Positions 3,752 through 15,613 of a DNA stretch of 34,968 nucleotides are shown one piece after another (position 1 is the first letter of the stretch; every line of letters begins with the position of its first letter). The notes under the pieces are model-generated. The model did no database searches, was not told the origin of the DNA, and was given only the letters and a program-made list of their open reading frames with translations. This DNA comes from an uncultured archaeon (GTDB lineage Archaea > Thermoplasmatota > Poseidoniia > MGIII > CG-Epi1), in the NCBI GenBank assembly GCA_964568285.1, contig CAZMPT010000001.1, positions 1 through 34,968 of the forward strand, written 5' to 3'. Both the position numbers and the translations under genes were made by a program.

Positions 3752-4603
3752 ATGAATTGGAAAAAAGAATGGAATAAATTTTCTGAAGGTGCAATTAAAG
3801 ATATGAAGAAGCACTCTGATAATACTCATGAAGAGCGTGAGTGGATGTGTTATGTTTATGAAGAAGATGGTATTTATCATTTAGGAAATGTAACTTATGG
3901 AGATGAATCTCGCATTGAGGTGAATCCTACTGCTAAAACTAACGAAGATGCATTAGTTAATGGACTAAGGCATAAAAAATGGACGATTCACGGACATCCA
4001 TTAAAAGATGGTAAGATTTATACAGGCCGACAATACTTTAGTTCTACCGATGTAATTGATGAGTTCATTAAATGTCGAGATAATGATGAATATGTGGTGC
4101 AATTCGTAGTGTATCCTCATCAACAAGTAGATGATAATACAGGACAAAGAGTGTTACATAATCGTGTCAGGGTCTTAGTATTCCCTGATTCGGCTACCGT
4201 AGTAGAAGCCATGAGAAAAGCCTCACCTAATTGTGACCCCTATTCCATTACCAGAGAATCTGGACAAAATCATTCCGTTCCAGACGGTAATGGTGGAACT
4301 ACTTTGGCTAATGATGCTGGGGCGGATTGGTTCGCTTTCCAAGAAGTATTAGGAGATATGGGATGGATGGGTATTGTAGATATTGAAGGGCCGGAATATG
4401 GAGCCGAGTCTTATAGTGCCGAAGATGATATGTTATCTCGCAGAAATATTGTTACGGCTATTGGTATGGCCTCAATTGCCGCCGTTATTTATGGTGTAGC
4501 CCGATATAATAATAAAGTTAGTGATGCTATTTCTAAGTTTGGTGTAGAAACCGTAGAAGGCAGCACTGAAGAATTAGAAGGATTCCATTGGTGGAAGAAA
4601 TAA
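3752..4603 (+). CDS. Possible JAB/MPN (JAMM) metalloprotease-like protein with a C-terminal TM helix
   Basis: Contains EEREW...WTIHGHP-x14-SSTD, which resembles the JAMM motif E...HxH...SxxD but with a longer spacer. The C-terminal hydrophobic helix is IVTAIGMASIAAVIYGV. The SD AGGTGAT lies 3 nt before the ATG and contains the upstream stop. Confidence 0.45.
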   Translation: MNWKKEWNKFSEGAIKDMKKHSDNTHEEREWMCYVYEEDGIYHLGNVTYGDESRIEVNPTAKTNEDALVNGLRHKKWTIHGHPLKDGKIYTGRQYFSSTDVIDEFIKCRDNDEYVVQFVVYPHQQVDDNTGQRVLHNRVRVLVFPDSATVVEAMRKASPNCDPYSITRESGQNHSVPDGNGGTTLANDAGADWFAFQEVLGDMGWMGIVDIEGPEYGAESYSAEDDMLSRRNIVTAIGMASIAAVIYGVARYNNKVSDAISKFGVETVEGSTEELEGFHWWKK

Positions 4604-5027: not shown

Positions 5028-8000
5028 TTATTCCTCCTGTGGGGTAATTAGCGACAGAATTCTATTATTTAGAATCGCAGCCCAATTAATCAGAGGGATT
5101 TTTCCTCTGCGCCAAGGAGAACTAGTGGGTGCTGAATAATCAATAGTTTTCCCTTCCAAGTTCGTTAATTCTTCCATTTCAAATATATCGTCCGGCAGAC
5201 TTTCTATGACAATACGAGGCACATCGCTATATTCCATAGTATTTTCTGTATTGCCCATAGCACGATTCAGCAGTGGTTCTCTACCGCCCGCCCAAACAAG
5301 ATTATCTCTGATTACTCCGCCGGATTCTCTTATTGCAGCCCATTGTTCATCAGTAAAATTTCTACCATATTCCATATTATTGGGAGTGAAGGCTAAATTA
5401 CCGTTATTATCTTCCATCATCATTGTATTATTGTTTAATCTAAGATAACCTTCCACCGCTGTATTTTGTAATGGCCGAAGTAATTTTCTCCATGTCCAAT
5501 TTCCTCGGCGCAATTGATTAGCATTTTCAGTCGCACTATTCATTCGTGGCATAGTAATTACATATTCATTAGGGTTTTCATATCCACTGCGAAGTGATGT
5601 TTCAGTATCTAATCCTATTAAATTTGACATAATTATTCCTTGAGGGTCTGGCGCATCCGTAGGCTCGTAAAGATTTCTTCGGGGAAGTCTAAATAACTCA
5701 CCTTTGACCTTGGCAGCCGTAGGATATGTCTCATCATGTGGAGTTGCTAATAATTGCCGAATTGAAGTTTCTTCACCCGATTGTGGAGGTATTTTAGGTT
5801 GAAAGTGAACATCTATATTAGTTGTAGGATACACCCTTTGAGAAAAATCTTCTAGGGTAATATCGTTGGCCCATCCTACACCCTCAAGTCTGTTTCTCCA
5901 AATCACATTCTCCATATAACTCCATGACCATCCGATTTCCCATCCATTTCCAAGTTTAATAGGATTTTGAGGGTCTTCTGGGTTAGGTTGTGTTTCCATT
6001 GAGAGAATTCCACTATCTCCTAAAAATTCATTCCACCACTCATCATGAATTGTAGTCATTGGAGTTAGGAAACTTTGTAGCATTCCTATATTTCCTTGAC
6101 CTCGTTGCCGACCATATCCCAGTGGAGCATTATTAGGAGGGTCAATTTTTTGGCGGGGCCAAGAGCATCCTTCATCCCAAAATTTGTAAGTAATTAGAGG
6201 TATTTCCTCTGGAGTTGATATGGCCCCATTCATCAGTGGTTGAGCATTTTCTACCGTAATAACACCAATATCATTCCAGACCCACCCATTATATTTTGGG
6301 TTTAGATATTCAGGGTCGGGGGTCATTGAAATTGCGTGAAATTCGGTTAATTCCGGCGTTGAACTACCCCTTGTTTTTTTAGTAGATGGATGTAGGAAAG
6401 TAGTGGAAATATGCCAGTATTTTAAATCAGTGGTTGTAGGGGCATTTCTTTCGTAATGAAACCACCAATCTGATAGAGATATTTCGTAAGCGTATTGTGG
6501 GTCTCCGCCCAAGTCAAAGACAATTTCTCTTGGAACAGCATATAATCCATTAGGCCAGCCGCCTCCATCACCAGTAGGGCTATAATAGGTAGCCACCGCT
6601 AAGGCGTATTCTACATTTACCCACGATGGTATTGAAAACAGCCATTGAGTCATTACTGAAGATAAGTGTTCATCTGATGTTCTTCGTAATGATGCGATAG
6701 GAGTGTCCCGCTCTGCATTATATCTTGTGAGGATAGCATCAAACATCCCCCTAAAAGAAGTTATGAATGGTTGAAGTGATTCATCTACGATTTGATAAGA
6801 TTCCCAGCAATCTAGGGCATTTACGATGGTGGAAATAGTGGTTCCTTGAGGGGAGTTACTACTAGAATAATGTTTCAATCCGCCCGCAGTTTCCTGATAC
6901 TTTAGAATCTCTCCATTAAGCCTATTACCAAAAGCATCCATTGTAGCGATACCGTTGTTTTGTGGAACTAAAAAATCTGAAGAGTAAGGAAAATTTAGAT
7001 AAAATGTTATTTCACCAACAACAGAGGGATACAAATCTAGTAATCTTTGGAGTTGTAAAATTGCATCAGCAGATAGGGGCAACGCTTCTAATGTTGCAGT
7101 ATAACCTTCAGGCACCGTTGGATGTCCTAATTCATTTAGCCCTACGAAGTCCAAGTTAAGATATTGTAAAATAGTTTCTGCGGTTATCATACTAATTTCA
7201 GGCAATTCTCTTAGTAATATCTCTGTCATCCTTTGTAATGTTTCATGCGCTAATTTATCAGTTACATACAAGTTTTCATCAAAAAGTTTATTTCTTATCA
7301 TAAAATCTTTTCCATTTCCAATTCTTTCATTCAACCATGCTTCTGCCGCATCAATAAGTGGAGTTTCTCCAGTCGTAGCATTCCCAGTTATATCCACTAG
7401 TGGTAATTCATCCCACGATATTGTAGGGCTATACAATGTATGAGAATAGCCGTTAAGCACACCCCAATCAATTTGCATAATATTTCCAATGTCTGCATAA
7501 TCTTGATAGTCTGGATGTTGTGCCGCTATCATTTTGCCCGTAGTATGCCTTCTTGTAGTGGGGTATGTCCGGTTTTGTTTATCTGATAGCCAATCCTTTT
7601 CAGTTAATAGTCGATTTCCCCTAGGGCCTCTAAGTTCATATTTTTGCTTCATAGCATTGATGTAGTATTCAAACCCACGATAGAAATTACTATTAGGTAA
7701 GAAAGTATTTCCATTTGGTTGCACACCCCAGTATCTCAAAGTGTTCTTTTGAGGGTCAGCAAAAGATTCGCCAGATAAGTATGTTAATAATTGAGCAGAC
7801 AATCCAACTTGCGACCCTCGTGGCCTCATTCTTCTAAGTGCTTCGGCATTTAATGGGCCGGAGTTTTCTAATGCACTATTTATTAGAGATTGGGCTGGAT
7901 GTAATACTACGGGCGTTGAAGGCACCCCCTCAATATCTGATGGGAAACCAACAGTTCCGATATTCATTCTGCTACCCATTGGGGATGGATTTTTTTGCCC

Positions 8001-8075
8001 TACTAATGTTGCATTCCACCATTTGAAATAACCTATATCGTTCAACCATTTGAAATAAAATTCTTGCCACTTCAT
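5028..8075 (-). CDS. Large Trp-rich hypothetical protein (1015 aa), possibly structural
   Basis: Uninterrupted 3-kb ORF with the SD GAGGGTGG upstream of the ATG at 8075. I recognised no catalytic motif (no polymerase DTDS, no P-loop). Confidence 0.75.
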   Translation of the reverse strand: MKWQEFYFKWLNDIGYFKWWNATLVGQKNPSPMGSRMNIGTVGFPSDIEGVPSTPVVLHPAQSLINSALENSGPLNAEALRRMRPRGSQVGLSAQLLTYLSGESFADPQKNTLRYWGVQPNGNTFLPNSNFYRGFEYYINAMKQKYELRGPRGNRLLTEKDWLSDKQNRTYPTTRRHTTGKMIAAQHPDYQDYADIGNIMQIDWGVLNGYSHTLYSPTISWDELPLVDITGNATTGETPLIDAAEAWLNERIGNGKDFMIRNKLFDENLYVTDKLAHETLQRMTEILLRELPEISMITAETILQYLNLDFVGLNELGHPTVPEGYTATLEALPLSADAILQLQRLLDLYPSVVGEITFYLNFPYSSDFLVPQNNGIATMDAFGNRLNGEILKYQETAGGLKHYSSSNSPQGTTISTIVNALDCWESYQIVDESLQPFITSFRGMFDAILTRYNAERDTPIASLRRTSDEHLSSVMTQWLFSIPSWVNVEYALAVATYYSPTGDGGGWPNGLYAVPREIVFDLGGDPQYAYEISLSDWWFHYERNAPTTTDLKYWHISTTFLHPSTKKTRGSSTPELTEFHAISMTPDPEYLNPKYNGWVWNDIGVITVENAQPLMNGAISTPEEIPLITYKFWDEGCSWPRQKIDPPNNAPLGYGRQRGQGNIGMLQSFLTPMTTIHDEWWNEFLGDSGILSMETQPNPEDPQNPIKLGNGWEIGWSWSYMENVIWRNRLEGVGWANDITLEDFSQRVYPTTNIDVHFQPKIPPQSGEETSIRQLLATPHDETYPTAAKVKGELFRLPRRNLYEPTDAPDPQGIIMSNLIGLDTETSLRSGYENPNEYVITMPRMNSATENANQLRRGNWTWRKLLRPLQNTAVEGYLRLNNNTMMMEDNNGNLAFTPNNMEYGRNFTDEQWAAIRESGGVIRDNLVWAGGREPLLNRAMGNTENTMEYSDVPRIVIESLPDDIFEMEELTNLEGKTIDYSAPTSSPWRRGKIPLINWAAILNNRILSLITPQEE

Positions 8076-8077
8076 TA

Positions 8078-8890
8078 TTAACCACCCTCTGCCATCATAG
8101 CCCCTACATCATGTCGGTAGTCAAAATAGTTGTTATTAGATAATGCTTGTTGGTATCTGGAAATTTGTGGTTCATCAAATGCCGCAATAAATAAATCATA
8201 TTGTTCTCTTTGACGAATATTAGAAGAGTTTTTCATGTCAGGGGTAATCGGCCATGTAGAAACGATAGGGTCAAACCAAACCGGAGTTCCATCACTTCGG
8301 TATCCAAAATTGGCTACATTGGCTACATCTCTAATAATTACATTAGCGTGGTGGAATAAATCTTCAGTCAAACTACGATAGGCGTGTTGTTCTTCAGGCA
8401 CTTTCTTTTCATAAATGTGAGGATTCCACCCCGACCTATTTGGATACTTCATCATGCCGCCCCAATTATTGTAAATAGTATTTGGAACACGCTCCATGAC
8501 CCACCATGCTAATCTGTTTCCTGAAGAAAATTCTTTTAGGGCTGAAATAAGGTCTGCTTTATTCCACCCATAATCATAATAAGAATCTCTAACTACATCT
8601 CTCATTTCTTCGCTAACTTCTCCATAACCGAAATCATAAATGTGTGGTAAGTGAGGGTTAATTGGATTCCCAACTAAACGAGCCATTAAATTTGCTTGTA
8701 GTTCATTAGTGGCAATTTTTCTGGAACGCATACTTCTCAAATCACCAAAAGTATTTCGGTAAGGTAGCACTTCTCCGACCACTAAAGGTCTAATCTGAAC
8801 TACTTTAACGACCTTTTCAGGGTCATCTTCCAGTTCAAAGACGAACCCAGATTCCCCATATCCGATGAGCGAACCTAGTGATGGTAGCAT
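8078..8890 (-). CDS. Protein-kinase-like fold protein
   Basis: Motifs: Gly-loop IGYGESGFVFE, VVKVV (beta3 Lys), catalytic-loop-like HHANVIIRDVANVANFG, and DFG-like WFDP. The start was moved to the in-frame ATG at 8890 (Met3), exactly 20 nt from the promoter motif at 8910. Confidence 0.5.
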   Translation of the reverse strand: MLPSLGSLIGYGESGFVFELEDDPEKVVKVVQIRPLVVGEVLPYRNTFGDLRSMRSRKIATNELQANLMARLVGNPINPHLPHIYDFGYGEVSEEMRDVVRDSYYDYGWNKADLISALKEFSSGNRLAWWVMERVPNTIYNNWGGMMKYPNRSGWNPHIYEKKVPEEQHAYRSLTEDLFHHANVIIRDVANVANFGYRSDGTPVWFDPIVSTWPITPDMKNSSNIRQREQYDLFIAAFDEPQISRYQQALSNNNYFDYRHDVGAMMAEGG

Positions 8891-8909
8891 ATCCATATTT
8901 TCACTTCGC

Positions 8910-8919
8910 TGTTATTTAA
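8910..8919 (-). promoter_or_regulatory. TATA-like promoter element, variant TTAAATAACA
   Basis: 20 nt to ATG 8890. Contains the TAA stop of gene 8916..9515. Confidence 0.6.
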
Positions 8920-9515
8920 GGTTGTGGTCGCATAATCCACTCGGTTATTGTTTCAATAATTTCACTGGCTGCGTGAGGCACATCTTCCAGTTTAAGATTG
9001 TGGAAAGTTAGATTAAATCCTTCCATGCCATCAAGGTCTGTTTCGGAAATCTCGTTCCTATTTTCCCAATGGGTTGCCCATCCATCTCCATACGCCTTTT
9101 CCAGTCGGCGTTTTTGTTCTTCTTCATCAACGGTTAATCGGATTGTGAACCATCCATCATCTTTTAGAGCCGTTAATTCATTTTGAAATCTCATATCATC
9201 ACAGATAACCATTTCGCAATTGGTGGTATCGTTTAGACCCTGAACTTGGTTGAGTAGTAAATCTACCCATACCGTATTTCTAATTTGACGAAATTGCTGT
9301 CCAATTTTTTGTAGCAACTCTCTATCTTTTTTATCAGAGGGCATCAAGAAGTAATCATAGGCTACTCTTTTAACTGGCGTTGCTAGAGATACTTTGGTTG
9401 CATGACTCTCATTGGGACAGTGTTTCAATACTTGTTTTAGTAATTCATCCGCAAGCGTGGTTTTGCCTACACCCATCTTTCCGCTAATGGCTATTCCAAC
9501 CAAGTAATCACTCAT
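8916..9515 (-). CDS. P-loop deoxynucleoside-monophosphate kinase-like protein (T4 gp1 family)
   Basis: Walker A is GKMGVGKT. RELLQKIGQQFRQIRNTVWV and CDDMRFQNE resemble the RRLMQALGTD...YW and PDTRQDHE/DVRFPNE motifs of phage dNMP kinases. It is leaderless, with the ATG 20 nt from the exact promoter motif. Confidence 0.65.
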   Translation of the reverse strand: MSDYLVGIAISGKMGVGKTTLADELLKQVLKHCPNESHATKVSLATPVKRVAYDYFLMPSDKKDRELLQKIGQQFRQIRNTVWVDLLLNQVQGLNDTTNCEMVICDDMRFQNELTALKDDGWFTIRLTVDEEEQKRRLEKAYGDGWATHWENRNEISETDLDGMEGFNLTFHNLKLEDVPHAASEIIETITEWIMRPQP

Positions 9516-9534
9516 AGTATTTCATAGGGAGATG

Positions 9535-9544
9535 ACCTATTTAA
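9535..9544 (-). promoter_or_regulatory. Promoter element, exact TTAAATAGGT
   Basis: 20 nt to ATG 9515 (leaderless geometry). Confidence 0.75.
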
Positions 9545-9556
9545 GCATTTTAATTT

Positions 9557-10432
9557 TCACACATCGGGAGCAAAATTTGTCCAATTAATAATGTATGCGG
9601 TGCGAGGTCGAGTAATCATATCAGACCAATCAGATAGTCTAGTAAATGGAGTATAATCCCACCAAGGGCTGCTATCTTGTTGATTTTCACGACCATAAGG
9701 GTAAATATCCAATCCAATTAACGGCGTGTTAAGAGTTGATACATCTATGGATTCATCATCCATCCAGCGCAAGTAAGATTCATTAATGGCTGCTAATTTC
9801 CATATATTTTCTGCCAGTTGTTTAGCCGATTTCAGGTTTTTAAGTTCCCCCATATCGTTCCATTCAGTAGGGACCAGTTGAGACCTTCCATTCTCGTTTC
9901 TGATGCTACCACCCTCAATTACTTTAGTATTATTTGCCAAATCGGGCCATTCTAACGCATTAAGGTTGTTGCTATAAATTCCAGAAGGCATTCCTTGGAA
10001 ATTATTCCATTGTTCTCGGAGCATTAAATCAAGGTCTAATGCTCTTTTAATCCGGTTTCTATGTTTGGTAGCAAAATTTGGTTTCATATAGACTCCAATA
10101 TTCCAATTTCCTTTAGTCTTACTATTCCAATTAGGTTTCCACCACACCATTACTTTATTTTTGTAGATATAAAAGGGTTTTAATCTTTCTCTATATCCTG
10201 TCCATGCTCTAAATCTTCCATCCCGATAAAGTAAATTTATTCCTAATCGTTGTCCCTCATCATTTTTGAATTGAGAGATGTTTAATCCGTTATAATTAGC
10301 ACCAACGCCTCCTCTTTGTAATAGATTCTTTTTTGCAGGGTCTAACAGTAATTCTTCCCATTGATAGGTCACCCAGTCTTTCTTATTAATACGCTTGATT
10401 TCTCTTTCGTATCTTTCAAGAAAACTAGCCAT
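9557..10432 (-). CDS. Hypothetical Trp/Asn-rich protein (291 aa)
   Basis: Long ORF with only a degenerate promoter-like element 21 nt upstream. Confidence 0.65.
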   Translation of the reverse strand: MASFLERYEREIKRINKKDWVTYQWEELLLDPAKKNLLQRGGVGANYNGLNISQFKNDEGQRLGINLLYRDGRFRAWTGYRERLKPFYIYKNKVMVWWKPNWNSKTKGNWNIGVYMKPNFATKHRNRIKRALDLDLMLREQWNNFQGMPSGIYSNNLNALEWPDLANNTKVIEGGSIRNENGRSQLVPTEWNDMGELKNLKSAKQLAENIWKLAAINESYLRWMDDESIDVSTLNTPLIGLDIYPYGRENQQDSSPWWDYTPFTRLSDWSDMITRPRTAYIINWTNFAPDV

Positions 10433-10452
10433 GATAATAAGTAGGGGCTTCC

Positions 10453-10462
10453 ACTACTTGAA
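10453..10462 (-). promoter_or_regulatory. Degenerate promoter-like element TTCAAGTAGT
   Basis: 21 nt to ATG 10432. Weak match. Confidence 0.3.
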
Positions 10463-10463
10463 A

Positions 10464-10682
10464 TTATCTTTTTAACCAAGCACCGATTCCGATAGATACA
10501 ATAACTAGGGTTCCAATTCCGATAGCAATTACCGCAGGAGATAACTGCTTTTCTTCTTCGCTTCCTTCAGGTTGTTGAATATACATGATTTGTGGGGTCT
10601 GCTGCGCTAAAGAAGATTGCATTGAACTAATCATACTCCGCATTTTGGCCCAAGGTTTAGGGCCGGGAGGAGGTGGAGGCAT
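10464..10682 (-). CDS. Small membrane protein with a polyproline N-terminus
   Basis: Starts MPPPPPGPKPW and ends with the TM helix AVIAIGIGTLVIVSIGIGAWL. Leaderless spacing of 20 nt from motif 10702. Confidence 0.6.
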   Translation of the reverse strand: MPPPPPGPKPWAKMRSMISSMQSSLAQQTPQIMYIQQPEGSEEEKQLSPAVIAIGIGTLVIVSIGIGAWLKR

Positions 10683-10701
10683 ATAGTTGGTATCTTCGTG
10701 C

Positions 10702-10711
10702 TGTTATTTAA
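10702..10711 (-). promoter_or_regulatory. Promoter element, variant TTAAATAACA
   Basis: 20 nt to ATG 10682. Contains the TAA stop of the helicase gene. Confidence 0.65.
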
Positions 10712-12936
10712 GCATTCTGCCCTAATAAAGAAGATTGTTTGGCCCCATTAGAGCGGTTTCTATTAACCCTAATAGATGATTTAATATATTCAGGGATATA
10801 ATTTTGCAGTGGTTCGTTTCCGATTCCCTTACTATAATGAAACCAAAATTGAGGGTCTATGATATAATTATGTCCTGTGTCTTCGGCAGACCTCACAACT
10901 CTACCTAACATTTGCGTTAATTGATTAGCGGTTTGTAATTTATACCAAGAAGGATTTTCTTTCATTTTAATCGCAGTTCTTACATCTCCCATCGCCGGAA
11001 ATGGAATTTTTACAATGATACAAAAATCTACTGACTTTCCATCGTATCCTTGGTTAGCATAAGTAGAAATCAAAACCTTGTTGCTTTGAGAATTATCAAA
11101 ATTAGTAAATACTTCGTTGCGGGACTTGGCATTTTTATTATGTTGCACTAATCTTTGTTCTGCACTTTTAGAAATATAAGCAATGGCTTCTACTAATTGT
11201 TTCTCTAGTGAGTCAGTATAGGGGAGAATAAGTCCTTTCTTTCGAGGATACAAATTCATAATATCTACGATAGCCTCTGCGGTCTTCATCATTTCTTCGT
11301 TTGATTTAGAAGAATACGACATCTTTCCTCCTACCTTACTACTATAAATGGGTCGGTTACTAAGTGGGAAACTAGAATAGTTAATCTGGAGAAAAGCCGT
11401 ATCTTCTTTGTTTAGTCCTATTTCATCACAGAAAATGTCAATATTTCCGATAGTTCCTGACATAAATACCCTTACCTTACCTGTATTTAGCATTAATTCT
11501 TCTGAATAATCTTTGATGTCTAATGGCTTAAAACTAATATATTCAGGTGCAGTATCATCATTTGCTTGCCAAAGACAGTTTTTCCAATCCGTAGAAAGTA
11601 GTTGTGTTACTGATTTAATTTTACTTATGGTATTATACACATATTTGAGTTCATCTTCTTCGTAATCTTTCTTTCGTATCTTGCGTGATACCATATTACT
11701 AAGTGCTTCAAAATACGCAGCCAAAACAACTGCTCCTTTTCTTCGGAAATCATCAGTAGATTCTACTCGCACAGATGGAACTTTAGGAAATCCCCATCCA
11801 TTGTTAGTTGGTGTCCATGATTCTAATTTTTTACTGCGTTCTTTTTGAAGGATAGGTCTATCTTTTTCAGCAGATTCTAAAACTTGTTGATGAGTCGGAA
11901 GTTGTAGCAGCCTTTCTATTACTTTTACAGAAAAATCTAATGAATAAAAGCCAGTCATAGCCGATGCAAGTTGATGCGCCTCATCTACAATAAGGAAATC
12001 TCGTTGTTTTACCATCTTTGATGATTGATTCATCGCCATTAGATAACTCATATTTGAGATAAAGAATCGAGAATTTTGGGCGTTAGTTAAAGATTCATAA
12101 TATTCACACAAAGATGTTGGGTCCACACCCCAATTGTAGCCATTCTCTGTTTTTGGAACTTTATAGGGACAACTAAATCCTCTGATTAAACTACAAGGAG
12201 CCATACTTGCGGTGCAACCGCCGGTTTGCCAATTAAAACCGCCAATAGTGGCTCTATCAACTGCTTCTTGCGCTCGTTGTTTATTTAAACATCCGGGTTC
12301 TAAGTCTAAACTGCATTCGTAATTTCCTTTTCCCATAACACTTCTCATAAAAGGCATTTCTTTCATATATTGTTCTTGTAGCCCTTTCAAATGAGTTACA
12401 ATATAGGATTCCGCATTAAAAATCTTGGGAAGAACCATAGCCATAGCCGATTTTCCAGAACCAGTAGGACATTCTATGACGATATTTTTGTATCCTTCTT
12501 GGATTAAATCTACTGCATGAGGAATAACTTGCGCTTGTTCTGGTCTCGGAGTTGGAAAACGGGTGCCTTCAAAGTATTCTTGACATTCCCAAAGATTTTC
12601 ATCTTCTTGGTTAATAACTACCTGTTTGAATCCCAATGATTGGGGCTTACCAATGACAGCATTACCTATTTTTCCCAATTGTGAGTCATCAAACTCTACG
12701 GCTTCAATTATTTTATCTTCTTCTTCCTCTATCTCTGAAGTAACTAAGACTCCATCTACCGCCATTTTTAACTCCATGATATTACAAAATTTGGTGAGGT
12801 TTTCTATCTTGAGTCCACCTATTTTCATAGTCCCAGTATAACATTTACGAGATTTATTCCATTTGAGGTCGTAAGTTCCTCCTAATACTTCACGATAAGG
12901 CATGGTATTACCCCGAACATCTACGCTAACGAACAT
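10708..12936 (-). CDS. XPD/Rad3 (DinG)-family superfamily-2 helicase with an Fe-S cluster domain
   Basis: Walker A is ECPTGSGKS, the DEAH box is VDEAHQL, and motif VI is QMLGRVVRS. A Cys cluster lies between them (GNYEC..PGC..GGCTASMAPC..FSCPY..SLCEY). There is a roughly 130-aa N-terminal extension of unknown function. The start was set to Met7 (12936), exactly 20 nt from the exact motif at 12956. The track ATG at 12954 is only 2 nt from the TATA box. Confidence 0.85.
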   Translation of the reverse strand: MFVSVDVRGNTMPYREVLGGTYDLKWNKSRKCYTGTMKIGGLKIENLTKFCNIMELKMAVDGVLVTSEIEEEEDKIIEAVEFDDSQLGKIGNAVIGKPQSLGFKQVVINQEDENLWECQEYFEGTRFPTPRPEQAQVIPHAVDLIQEGYKNIVIECPTGSGKSAMAMVLPKIFNAESYIVTHLKGLQEQYMKEMPFMRSVMGKGNYECSLDLEPGCLNKQRAQEAVDRATIGGFNWQTGGCTASMAPCSLIRGFSCPYKVPKTENGYNWGVDPTSLCEYYESLTNAQNSRFFISNMSYLMAMNQSSKMVKQRDFLIVDEAHQLASAMTGFYSLDFSVKVIERLLQLPTHQQVLESAEKDRPILQKERSKKLESWTPTNNGWGFPKVPSVRVESTDDFRRKGAVVLAAYFEALSNMVSRKIRKKDYEEDELKYVYNTISKIKSVTQLLSTDWKNCLWQANDDTAPEYISFKPLDIKDYSEELMLNTGKVRVFMSGTIGNIDIFCDEIGLNKEDTAFLQINYSSFPLSNRPIYSSKVGGKMSYSSKSNEEMMKTAEAIVDIMNLYPRKKGLILPYTDSLEKQLVEAIAYISKSAEQRLVQHNKNAKSRNEVFTNFDNSQSNKVLISTYANQGYDGKSVDFCIIVKIPFPAMGDVRTAIKMKENPSWYKLQTANQLTQMLGRVVRSAEDTGHNYIIDPQFWFHYSKGIGNEPLQNYIPEYIKSSIRVNRNRSNGAKQSSLLGQNA

Positions 12937-12955
12937 ATATTTACTATCATCCATT

Positions 12956-12965
12956 ACCTATTTAA
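12956..12965 (-). promoter_or_regulatory. Promoter element, exact TTAAATAGGT
   Basis: 20 nt to the in-frame ATG 12936 of the helicase. Confidence 0.7.
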
Positions 12966-12972
12966 CCATAAT

Positions 12973-12982
12973 TTCATATAGC
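12973..12982 (+). promoter_or_regulatory. Promoter element, variant TTCATATAGC
   Basis: 21 nt to ATG 13003 (PP2C). Back to back with 12956-12965. Confidence 0.5.
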
Positions 12983-13002
12983 AGACCACACTTAATAATA
13001 CT

Positions 13003-13779
13003 ATGCAGGTATTTTGGGGAGTTCGTAATATTCCACGATTTGATAAAAAAACGGATGGTGGAGACGATGGATGGTTCAGTAATGATAGCACCAATGCTGC
13101 TGGAGTCGCAGACGGCGTAGGTTCGTGGAGAAAAAAGGGTATTAAAAGTGGTAATTTTTCTCGTTCCATGATGTCTAAGACCAATAATCGTATTGAACAA
13201 GGTATGAATCCTTATGATGCTTTACAAAGTGCATTTTTAGATTGGGAAGATAAAACAGGTTATGGCTCTACTACCTTTTGTGTAGCCCAGATGCTTGAAG
13301 ATATTTTGTATGTAGCCCAATTAGGCGATAGTTGTATTTTAGTTCAAAGAAATGGAAGGGTCGTTTATCAATCAAATGAACAAGAACACTTGTTTAATGT
13401 CCCCTATCAATTAGGTTCAGGTAATGAATCATTAGAGGATTCTTGGAGGTATCAAATTTCCCTTTTGCCCGGAGATACCATCATTATTGCTTCCGATGGA
13501 TTGTTTAATAATTTATATCGTAGTAAAATTCTCTCTATTATCAATAGTTATCCTATGGAATCGGAAAATCCCAATGCTTTATCGCAACAAATTGCAGACC
13601 AATTAGCCGGAGAAGCATACGACCAATCTATGTCTAATAAATATTGGTCACCATTTGCCCAACGCTCTTACGAAATGGGAATTACAGAAGCCTTTGATGT
13701 GGCTCAATTAGGTGGAAAGCCTGATGATATTACAGTGGTGGTAGGGCGTGTTTTATCTAAAGATGTTTGGAGAGATTAA
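13003..13779 (+). CDS. PP2C-family Ser/Thr phosphatase, PTC7/SpoIIE-like
   Basis: Motifs: GVADGVGSW, GSTTFCVA, AQLGDSC, EQEHLFNVPYQLG, IIASDGLFNN, GGKPDDITVVV. Leaderless, 21 nt from the plus-oriented TATA at 12973. Confidence 0.9.
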   Translation: MQVFWGVRNIPRFDKKTDGGDDGWFSNDSTNAAGVADGVGSWRKKGIKSGNFSRSMMSKTNNRIEQGMNPYDALQSAFLDWEDKTGYGSTTFCVAQMLEDILYVAQLGDSCILVQRNGRVVYQSNEQEHLFNVPYQLGSGNESLEDSWRYQISLLPGDTIIIASDGLFNNLYRSKILSIINSYPMESENPNALSQQIADQLAGEAYDQSMSNKYWSPFAQRSYEMGITEAFDVAQLGGKPDDITVVVGRVLSKDVWRD

Positions 13780-13979: not shown

Positions 13980-14525
13980 GTGGGGGAATTGAATAAAAAG
14001 AAACTGCGGATGGACAAGAGGAGGAAATCTCGTAGCCAGACCTATCCTAAAACTTATTCTCTGCGCCAATTTCAGGACCTTGTTCTATCTTTTTTTGACC
14101 GAAGAATCAGGCATTATGCATTAAGCCATATTATAAATTATTGTGGTGTTTTAACATATGAACCCAAGGTAGTTCGTTTAATTCAACAGTATCCCACAGA
14201 ATATAGGAATTTATTTAATGATAGTTGGTGGAGAAGTCAGCACAATCCCGAAGAACTTGAAATGCGTAAGCATCCAACTCGTGGTCGGCAGTGGATAGGT
14301 AGTCGTTTAACGACAGAAAGAAATGACCTGATATTTAATGTGTTCCATCAGGAAGGAAGTATAAAACTATCCTCAAGTCCACAACTTTGTCGGTTGTGCT
14401 ACAATGATGTTCCTGCCTTTTTGACAGAAAAACAAGCGGGCTTCTGTGTAGAATGTTGGCGCAGGTATGCACACCCATATCTGAACGATGTTATAGCCTA
14501 TTCGCTTGATTCAAACCCTAATTGA
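13980..14525 (+). CDS. Basic protein with a C-terminal CxxC...CxxC zinc ribbon
   Basis: The zinc ribbon reads CRLCYNDVPAFLTEKQAGFCVECW and the N-terminus is Lys/Arg-rich. Start candidates are GTG 13980, TTG 13989 (after GGGGTGGGGG) and ATG 14010. Confidence 0.55.
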   Translation: MGELNKKKLRMDKRRKSRSQTYPKTYSLRQFQDLVLSFFDRRIRHYALSHIINYCGVLTYEPKVVRLIQQYPTEYRNLFNDSWWRSQHNPEELEMRKHPTRGRQWIGSRLTTERNDLIFNVFHQEGSIKLSSSPQLCRLCYNDVPAFLTEKQAGFCVECWRRYAHPYLNDVIAYSLDSNPN

Positions 14526-15613
14526 TTCATGGCTTCATCGGCGGTCATATCACCCTTCTCAACCGCTTCAGTTAGGACTCCAAATGGATAACATTCATCA
14601 CGGAAGTCGCAGTAGGCACATTCCCAATTACCGGCCCCATTCACATCTGACGCACCTGCTAATGGATTACGCTGAATCTTCGGCCAATTAGTCTTAGCAA
14701 TTTGGCCTCTTGCCCACATCTGTTCTAATACTTCTTCAGAATGTCTTAGGTTATATCCTCGTGCGGGTGGTTCTTCGGATTCTAATTCCAATTGCATCTC
14801 TACAAAATTACTAATGATGTCCTCCACAGTAAATTCTCCTACGGATGCATAAGGCTCATTGGTAGATGCCTCCTTCTCCATACAGAAAACTTGGTCGGAA
14901 ACAATTGGGTTGTCATCCAAATCAGTAACAATGACACGACCTGAATATCCATCTTCCAATCTAATTTTGAAAACCTTAGTCAATCCTGAATCAACAGCCA
15001 AATAATGTAGTTCGGCGTGGTCTATGGTTACTCCATAATAGTCCTCGTATGGCTTACGAATTGCCAAATAGACCGCCATTTGCATTACATATCCATGCTT
15101 GGGCTTTCCATTTCTAAACTCTTTGTTTCCCATAGCCTCTCTTGCACCATAGCCTCTAATGGTTTTGGTGTCCACAATAACTGCTTCCGTGCGGGAGATA
15201 GAAATAATGTTGCCCTCATCATCCAATTCAGCCTTTCTGATGATTTGGTCCACTTCACCAGAAATATGAACTCGGACATCTCCGCCATATCCTGTTAATT
15301 CAGTAATATCTTCTTTGATTTTGATGTTGCTATCAATTAGTAATCCTTGACGCTCAAAATGATGAGTCAATGACGCTTCCATAGCGTGTCCGGTTTCAAA
15401 GATAACAAATGAACGGTCATCAGGAGGGTTGGTGCGTGGTGCGCCTGTTTTACTATACCAGTTTTGACGATGGCACTTACCAATGTATTCAGGTTCTCCC
15501 CAATGGTTATTGCGAGTAACACCCGCACCTGTTGGGTTCAATCCGCCAAGTGATACTCGGAAGGGTCGCTTTTCCATGCTTCTAATTGCTGCTTTGATAT
15601 AATTAGGATTCAT
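14498..15613 (-). CDS. Cas4/RecB-family PD-(D/E)xK nuclease with a 4Fe-4S Cys motif
   Basis: Motifs: N-terminal GKCHRQNWY, ETGHAME, GEVDQI, IVDTKT (DxK), QMAVYL (QxxxY), and C-terminal CAYCDFRDEC (Cx2Cx5C). An unusually long insert of about 150 aa precedes the C-terminal Cys triad. Confidence 0.75.
   Translation of the reverse strand: MNPNYIKAAIRSMEKRPFRVSLGGLNPTGAGVTRNNHWGEPEYIGKCHRQNWYSKTGAPRTNPPDDRSFVIFETGHAMEASLTHHFERQGLLIDSNIKIKEDITELTGYGGDVRVHISGEVDQIIRKAELDDEGNIISISRTEAVIVDTKTIRGYGAREAMGNKEFRNGKPKHGYVMQMAVYLAIRKPYEDYYGVTIDHAELHYLAVDSGLTKVFKIRLEDGYSGRVIVTDLDDNPIVSDQVFCMEKEASTNEPYASVGEFTVEDIISNFVEMQLELESEEPPARGYNLRHSEEVLEQMWARGQIAKTNWPKIQRNPLAGASDVNGAGNWECAYCDFRDECYPFGVLTEAVEKGDMTADEAMNQLGFESSE

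Follow-up and report, generated by a model that had tools for sequence, protein, structure and literature searches.

The stretch of DNA analysed here (the window) is an entire contig of 34,968 bp, C1, of a 1.16-Mb, 167-contig metagenome bin from Marine Group III, a group of uncultured archaea. It represents part of a large archaeal virus-like element. Its principal genes encode a kinase-like protein (KL), which belongs to a previously undescribed family, a PP2C phosphatase of the PTC7 type, a deoxynucleoside monophosphate (dNMP) kinase-type enzyme and a DinG/XPD-family helicase. The central features are located as follows.

8078..8896, minus strand: KL gene, 272 aa, predicted minimal protein-kinase-like phosphotransferase of a new family
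8916..9515, minus strand: dNMP-kinase-type P-loop gene, 199 aa (phrog_139, 'deoxynucleoside monophosphate kinase', 1.8e-24)
10708..12954, minus strand: DinG/XPD-family superfamily 2 helicase, 748 aa (Helicase_C_2, ResIII and DEAD_2; phrog_2488, 6.8e-80; YoaA/DinG models; PADLOC typeIV_DinG, 1e-53)
12955..13002: AT-rich intergenic region of 48 nt between the divergent helicase and PP2C starts
13003..13779, plus strand: PTC7-type PP2C (PPM) metal-dependent phosphatase, 258 aa (Pfam PP2C_2 PF13672, 1.6e-10, 41.4 bits against a cut-off of 24)

KL, the dNMP kinase and the DinG-type helicase are transcribed as one operon, of which the helicase gene is the first. The dNMP-kinase gene lies 5′ of KL in transcription order, with a 19-nt spacer carrying a Shine-Dalgarno-like GAAGTGA. 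An earlier sequence-only reading of this region described KL as directly followed by a dNMP kinase resembling T4 gp1: the two genes are indeed adjacent, in the reverse order, and the label comes from the PHROG match only. The same reading began KL at 8890, which is the second in-frame ATG of what is a real open reading frame (ORF); the longest version starts MDMLPS at 8896. The divergence of the PP2C and helicase genes was seen correctly. They are 48 nt apart and we infer from the sequence that this interval would be a shared promoter region. Short metatranscriptome contigs (96-100% identity) cover the KL and dNMP-kinase genes, a 291-aa ORF and a Cas4-like nuclease gene; one (8752-8979) bridges the KL/dNMP-kinase junction and another lies over 9819-10088 in the 291-aa ORF. 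Sampling of such RNA contigs is very sparse, and DNA carry-over is possible.

Other window genes specify a full TFB, an Hjc-type resolvase, the beta chain of a ferredoxin-thioredoxin reductase, a primase, a fragment of PolX and the Cas4-like nuclease. An archaeal virus-like setting had been proposed, and TFB, the Hjc-like resolvase, PolX, the primase and the Cas4-like nuclease are all present. Genes for MCM, the large subunit of PolD, DNA ligase, NUDIX and glycosyltransferases are present on related contigs, and close PP2C homologs sit on contigs of 145-170 kb. None of the window proteins matches capsid or terminase models. The designation 'large archaeal virus-like element' reflects this gene content, the length of the related contigs and the lack of capsid or terminase matches. 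The GC content of C1 is 39.2%, against 40.1% for the bin, and its tetranucleotide correlation with the remainder of the bin is 0.90 against a median of 0.96, the second lowest among contigs of at least 8 kb. SufB, encoded on a different contig of the bin, belongs to a 90%-identity cluster that bears the name Marine Group III euryarchaeote CG-Epi2, and a halophile host was rejected on this basis. KL and PP2C are missing from the other 44 genomes of the host order; they are genes of the element, not of the host.

Motifs, family and predicted structure of the kinase-like protein

KL contains a Gly-loop (G12xG14xxG17), a β3 lysine motif (V29xK31), a hinge (VME135RVP), a catalytic loop (R189-D190...N196) and a metal-binding site (F208-D209-P210) equivalent to DFG. 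The distance between D190 and N196 is 6 residues and that between N196 and D209 is 13. In protein kinase A (PKA), which also has the Gly-loop and the β3 lysine, the corresponding distances are 5 and 13 and the hinge is VMEYVP. As read from the sequence, the spacing of the KL motifs is that of eukaryote-type kinases, with a catalytic loop one residue longer than in PKA. The Gly-loop, VxK, RD...N and FDP motifs, all of which had been picked out in the sequence-only reading, are invariant in 12 close homologs (50-93% identity) and are not a matter of chance.

A profile search of 1.84 billion cluster representatives returned only 53 proteins matching KL. Those inspected belong to the same family, with the exception of a few repeat-like ones (P0049, P0054, P0055), and 11 full-length homologs from marine metagenomes are 50-93% identical to KL. 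Nine residues (G14, G17, K31, E135, D190, N196, G198, R200 and D209) are invariant in 22 full-length relatives of at least 24% identity, and the catalytic residues are retained down to 22% identity, multidomain fusions included. In a hidden Markov model (HMM) alignment of all 53 matches, G14, G17, D190, N196 and D209 are present wherever the region is aligned. K31 is present in all aligned rows bar two misaligned or spurious ones (P0041, P0054), and G198 is replaced by Arg in one (P0047).

An AlphaFold2 model of KL, built from a 12-row alignment, has a bilobal kinase fold (predicted local distance difference test score, pLDDT, 76; predicted template modelling score, pTM, 0.80). The N-lobe carries a helical insert of roughly 55 residues, and the C-terminal tail is composed of three helices with a YFxxRH motif. 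The best 50 Foldseek matches of this model in the PDB are all kinases (E down to 1e-4, probability ~1.0) and include PERK, haspin, AceK, OspG, GCN2, CDK4, AAK1/BIKE, PknB, HopBF1 and the kinase domain of a lanthipeptide synthetase. Among the best 50 matches in BFVD, all named ones are giant-virus or phage protein kinases, save one NAT-domain phage protein. Structure prediction and conservation of the catalytic Lys and Asp had been suggested as ways of challenging the kinase assignment. The assignment withstands both, since the predicted fold is that of a kinase and K31, D190 and D209 are kept in the homologs.

This relationship is not visible to standard family models. Scans of KL against Pfam, NCBIfam, PHROG and PADLOC gave zero matches. 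The hallmarks of Hanks-type kinases (the PF00069 model, an APE activation segment and an αF to αI lobe) are absent from KL, with no Pfam match at E <= 0.1. Nor does KL have the P-loop fold of polynucleotide 5′-kinases (Pnk/Clp1), its model being protein-kinase-like (PKL). A search of PDB sequences with the KL profile found only a sub-threshold match to the Gly-loop/VxK region of NleH (E 0.67). Scans of IMG/VR and of GTDB genomes with the KL alignment revealed no relatives, and tblastn searches of 50,697 deposited phage and archaeal-virus records gave no match to KL or to PP2C. The KL family is confined to a clade of large virus-like elements. From the invariant catalytic residues and the kinase fold it is concluded that KL is an active phosphotransferase of a new PKL family: on the evidence of the model it is a new minimal branch of the PKL superfamily, and its catalytic activity is highly probable. 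The fold leaves the class of substrate unfixed.

The closest parallels in design are minimal effector kinases of bacteria, of the OspG, NleH and HopBF1 type (PDB 4bvu, 4q5h, 4lrk, 6pwd), which share with KL a small PKL domain with Gly-loop, β3 Lys, catalytic Asp/Asn and metal-binding Asp, as well as the lack of an activation segment and of GHI substrate-binding helices. In the Foldseek search they rank with the best matches of KL (TMt 0.45-0.50). However, KL has no significant sequence similarity to these proteins and differs from them in the N-lobe insert of ~55 residues, the additional residue in the catalytic loop, the absence of a conserved αC Glu and its own three-helix C-terminal tail with YFxxRH. 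Moreover, they are secreted by bacteria whereas KL is encoded by an archaeal virus-like element. As a virus-carried protein KL also recalls phage kinases of the T7 gp0.7 type and the Ser/Thr kinases of giant viruses, which rewire host or viral proteins. Its best BFVD matches include a Xylella phage 'phage protein kinase', T7-like Klebsiella and Pantoea phage kinases, and Megaviridae and Marseillevirus kinases. In contrast to these, KL has no Pfam Pkinase match, and its gene shares an archaeal element with those of a PP2C and a JAB/MPN+ protease.

Kinases and phosphatases of viral origin are familiar from phages and giant viruses. What is new here is the KL family, the combination of KL, PP2C and JAB protease, and the domain of the host. 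In the literature on archaeal viruses no description of a kinase or phosphatase was found, nor of a set of kinase, PP2C and JAB protease, and nothing specific was found in the literature on Marine Group III viruses or on viral PolD.

The phosphatase, the host and the conserved gene block

The PP2C aligns over its full length with rice PP2C1 (PDB 6ae9; 3.4e-29). Past about 40 clusters from related elements, the named proteins closest to it are eukaryotic PTC7/PPTC7 and plant PP2C55 (33-37% identity), and its original assignment to the PTC7 type is upheld. With PTC7/PPTC7 and PP2C55/PP2C1 it shares, over the full length, the motifs GxD, ADGVGxW, LGDS, SDGLxxN and GGKxDDIT, and D22, D37-G38, D109, D165-G166 and D241-D242 do not vary from the element clade to eukaryotic PTC7. 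All metal-binding motifs are invariant, and the protein should be an active phosphatase. Unlike eukaryotic PTC7, it has no organelle targeting extension, and it is encoded by an archaeal virus-like element in whose host order no homolog occurs. The eukaryotic affiliation of the nearest named relatives could be a sign that genes have passed between these elements and eukaryotes, in either direction, and a eukaryote-like PTC7 phosphatase on an archaeal element is of evolutionary interest. The nearest named relatives beyond the element clade are those of Paramecium, plant PP2C55 and animal PTC7; none is archaeal or bacterial.

The sole Pkinase match of the host bin is Bud32, adjoining Kae1. At most one match, of Bud32 size, was found in 43 of the 45 Marine Group III genomes (G000-G044), while G028 and G030 have one additional kinase ORF each, of ~680 aa. 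The host order has essentially no Hanks-type kinases of its own.

Conservation of the gene set was followed in seven further lineages reached from KL homologs (L001, L005, L011, L012, L015, L019 and L020), the KL proteins of which are 25-54% identical to that of the window. As a blind test the set was then approached from the PP2C side, through two divergent PP2Cs: L028, which lies on a contig of 170 kb, and L029. A search of their loci with the KL HMM showed that both carry KL. In all ten diverged lineages, window included, a span of about 10 kb holds the genes for KL, dNMP kinase, DinG/XPD helicase and PP2C, and none of the ten has only one of KL and PP2C. The PP2C gene is divergent from that of the helicase in nine; in L028 a small ORF lies between the two, which converge. 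The dNMP-kinase gene is directly 3′ of the helicase gene in eight, the exceptions being L011 and L028. In a Tara lineage (L020:3613-4836 and L021:2797-4020) a gene for a 407-aa FAD-dependent oxidoreductase (FAD_binding_3 / GGR-like) is located between the dNMP-kinase and helicase genes.

The commonest immediate neighbour of the KL gene encodes another putative enzyme:

3752..4603, plus strand: JAB/MPN+ (JAMM-type) putative metalloprotease, 283 aa, assigned from its motif and predicted fold; C-terminal membrane helix

This protein has the invariant motif E28/E30...H80-G-H82-P-x14-S97-S-T-D100, with a long spacer of 14 residues. It has no match in a Pfam scan. A Foldseek search with its AlphaFold2 model (pLDDT 76) retrieves BRCC36, CSN5, NPL4-MPN and an archaeal Rpn11 homolog (E 2e-3 to 4e-2, probability up to 0.99), and on this model the protein is likely to be a JAMM-type isopeptidase. 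No other small protein of the block is as highly conserved (53-71% identity across lineages). Its gene is directly 5′ of KL in six lineages (L011, L012, L015, L019, L028 and L029); in the window and the two nearest lineages it lies ~3.5 kb from KL, on the opposite strand.

The match of the 199-aa protein to phrog_139 spans residues 8-173. In Pfam, AAA_18 passes its threshold while DNMK scores 20.6 bits against a cut-off of 27.1 and P-mevalo_kinase is also below cut-off; a phmmer search of the PDB matched no solved dNMP kinase. The protein appears to be a dNMP-kinase-type P-loop enzyme, for which the label 'T4-gp1-like' is reasonable. It shares with T4 gp1 (Pfam DNMK PF21448; phrog_139) the P-loop fold of nucleoside monophosphate kinases. 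It differs in falling below the DNMK cut-off and in its context: T4 gp1 owes its special role to the genes of the hydroxymethyl-deoxycytidine (hmdC) pathway, and no such genes were seen in the window or in the flanks read. Two PADLOC models match as well, VakA (7.7e-7) and the middle portion of a 'dCTPase' defence protein (1.5e-6).

Domain fusions and possible substrates

Distant members of the KL family are found fused to other domains. One type has an additional C-terminal zinc-finger region (424-609 aa in all). Fusions with NUDIX are represented by P0041, P0044 and the second gene of L019, and the KL orthologs of L019, L020 and L021 are NUDIX-fused. The 1326-aa P0046, a KL paralog of L019, combines KL with PolX, zinc ribbons, DUF5872 and a LigD 3′-phosphoesterase (LigD_N), and P0051 combines KL with PolX, Cu/Zn superoxide dismutase (SOD) and DUF5872. 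The PolX and phosphoesterase parts of P0046 are 46% and 53% identical, respectively, to the products of the window element's own genes, which are separate and lie just past the window end. The KL-PolX fusion is confined to another lineage. A KL-like N-terminus on the PolX of the window element was considered and rejected, the 565-aa PolX in L025 having a zinc-ribbon N-terminal region. KL is also coupled to ligase: in L011 it shares 4 nt with the start of an ATP-dependent DNA ligase gene, and in L029 it converges on a ligase gene.

Two further features of these proteins were observed. In polyprotein-like ORFs (L019:3246-7226; P0042, P0046, P0050 and P0051) the KL domain, PolX, zinc ribbons, DUF5872, a LigD phosphoesterase and, in one case, Cu/Zn SOD are joined by a repeated module of ~50 aa (...DLMYSNAVTGNFLEDQAKFNYGLNAES...), which may serve as a linker, for docking or for cleavage. 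A short 'GAE' linker motif was rejected as a proteome-wide cleavage mark: it is not general, and the ~50-aa module occurs only in the fusion lineage. In addition, three independent assemblies (window end 34966, L022:3 and L023:3) break at the same point in PolX, leaving a 296-aa fragment, while one Logan contig (L025:2614-4311) reads through to the 565-aa PolX, the gene of which is preceded by those for a LigD-type phosphoesterase and a 544-aa zinc-ribbon protein. A repeat, variation among strains or the end of a genome, for instance, could account for the shared break.

The fusions and the ligase coupling point to a place for the KL domain in DNA-end chemistry, which leaves two readings: KL could be a kinase of repair and replication proteins, or a kinase of nucleic acids or nucleotides. 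The inference of a pathway from the fusions is weakened because the SOD-containing fusion and the repeated linker suggest polyprotein-like concatenations of adjoining genes. In the reading preferred here, which is put forward tentatively, KL is a protein kinase and PP2C the corresponding eraser. KL would phosphorylate proteins on Ser or Thr, its most likely targets being the DNA replication and repair machinery of the element or of the host, and PP2C would be the element's own means of removing these marks. Together they would constitute a self-contained phospho-switch, brought into a host lineage without such a PP2C and almost without signalling kinases, while the dNMP kinase would serve the ordinary supply of nucleotides for element DNA synthesis. 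A virus-borne KL/PP2C pair is plausible. A role as protein kinase is favoured because the structural neighbours of KL are protein kinases, the JAB/MPN+ neighbour is protein-directed, PP2C is always intact and the host has virtually no writers. The pairing gains indirect support from the co-occurrence in ten of ten lineages, the absence of both genes from the other 44 genomes of that order and the nearly kinase-free state of the host order. If true, an element importing a full writer and eraser would be a clear example from nature of how a virus can add a layer of post-translational control, because Marine Group III genomes carry almost no Ser/Thr signalling.

Several observations weigh against this reading. 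The αC glutamate of KL is unconserved: E65 is present in close homologs and is replaced elsewhere by Q, R, T, I or Y, N64 and Q67 being kept instead. The C-lobe is without the activation segment and substrate-binding helices of canonical protein kinases, only ~63 residues following D209. The TM-scores of the model to kinases are just 0.3-0.44. PP2C is constantly tied to the helicase gene, whereas KL shifts its place, strand and domain partners, and co-occurrence argues only weakly for functional coupling when all cases come from a single clade of syntenic elements. The PP2C gene has no RNA contig over it, in what is a very sparsely sampled metatranscriptome. Lastly, the NUDIX and PolX + LigD fusions and the ligase overlap accord no less well with a substrate of nucleic acid or nucleotide than with a protein.

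A nucleic-acid substrate is, because of the fusions and the ligase coupling, a live rival. KL would in this case be a nucleic-acid or nucleotide kinase built on the protein-kinase fold, with PP2C acting on something else, a proposal that we regard as rather unlikely. It could be a 5′-OH polynucleotide kinase completing an end-healing and sealing set with PolX, the LigD-type 3′-phosphoesterase and DNA ligase, or a nucleotide kinase acting beside the dNMP kinase and NUDIX. Beyond the fusion of the L019 paralog to PolX and LigD_N, the NUDIX-fused orthologs of L019, L020 and L021, and the two ligase arrangements (L011, L029), it is favoured by the co-transcription of the window KL with dNMP-kinase and repair-type helicase genes, by the minimal predicted C-lobe, which would offer no platform for a protein substrate, and by the fact that no P-loop polynucleotide kinase was seen in the stretches read. 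The joining of KL to PolX and a LigD-type 3′-phosphoesterase, or its proximity to ligase, recalls T4 Pnkp, bacterial LigD and mammalian PNKP with PolX. However, to our knowledge all polynucleotide kinases are P-loop enzymes, whereas the KL domain has, as modelled, a protein-kinase fold, and no PKL-fold polynucleotide kinase was found described in the literature. Moreover, the structural neighbours of KL are all protein kinases, with no aminoglycoside, choline or other small-molecule kinases among them, its commonest neighbour is the protein-directed JAB/MPN+ gene, and the Cu/Zn SOD in one fusion and the shared linker module may indicate concatenation of the polyprotein type. In its most specific form, in which the KL domain would be the first 5′-OH DNA/RNA kinase on a protein-kinase fold, working with PolX, the LigD-type phosphoesterase, NUDIX and ligase while PP2C and JAB have other roles, the proposal is improbable. 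The KL fusions nevertheless pose the question of whether a kinase-fold enzyme acts on DNA ends or on repair proteins.

It is equally conceivable, and likewise doubtful, that KL and PP2C are both active yet independent, and merely travel together as core genes of a clade of syntenic elements. PP2C would then work with the helicase/replication module, or on host phosphoproteins written by RIO or atypical kinases, and KL with the JAB/MPN+ protease. The stability of the divergent PP2C-helicase pair (nine of ten lineages) beside a KL that changes place, strand and domain partners, the position of the JAB gene directly 5′ of KL in six lineages, and the equal conservation of the Cas4-like nuclease and other genes of the block are all in keeping with such independence. 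Against this, both genes are present in every one of the ten lineages and neither occurs alone, and the host order has almost no kinases able to write substrates for PP2C, which makes a writer encoded by the element the economical source. A different role for the dNMP kinase had also been raised, namely that it signals a non-canonical nucleotide pool, as in T4, where gp1 serves hmdCMP; KL and NUDIX could be included in such a modified-nucleotide pathway. The match to the phage dNMP-kinase PHROG, the weak PADLOC 'dCTPase' match, and the presence of dCMP deaminase (L012), NUDIX (L015, L019, L020) and the FAD-dependent oxidoreductase beside the dNMP kinase (L020) could be taken in this sense. However, the window and the ~20-kb flanks read in ten related lineages yielded no gene of the thymidylate-synthase/hydroxymethylase type, no glucosyltransferase gene and no other gene for base modification, in a survey that covers only a fraction of these elements (>100 kb), and dNMP kinases are common in large viruses with ordinary DNA. 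The claim is not borne out and such a pathway is very improbable.

Other genes of the block

The remaining genes around KL and PP2C are as follows.

5028..8075, minus strand: fast-evolving ORF, 1015 aa, no family match (Pfam, PHROG, NCBIfam)
9557..10682, minus strand: lineage-specific ORFs of 291 aa and 72 aa between the helicase and dNMP-kinase genes
14498..15613, minus strand: Cas4-like PD-(D/E)XK nuclease, 371 aa (phrog_1990, 1.2e-8; PDDEXK_1 weak)

The 1015-aa ORF starts 2 nt past the KL stop (TAA-ta-ATG), an arrangement of translational coupling. Its counterparts at the same position in L001 and L005 are only 21-23% identical (E 0.01-0.06), against 50-79% for the flanking genes. The 291-aa and 72-aa ORFs are not present in any related locus, and the smaller starts MPPPPPGPKP. 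The Cas4-like nuclease is a conserved neighbour of PP2C, with 37-79% identity in all lineages.

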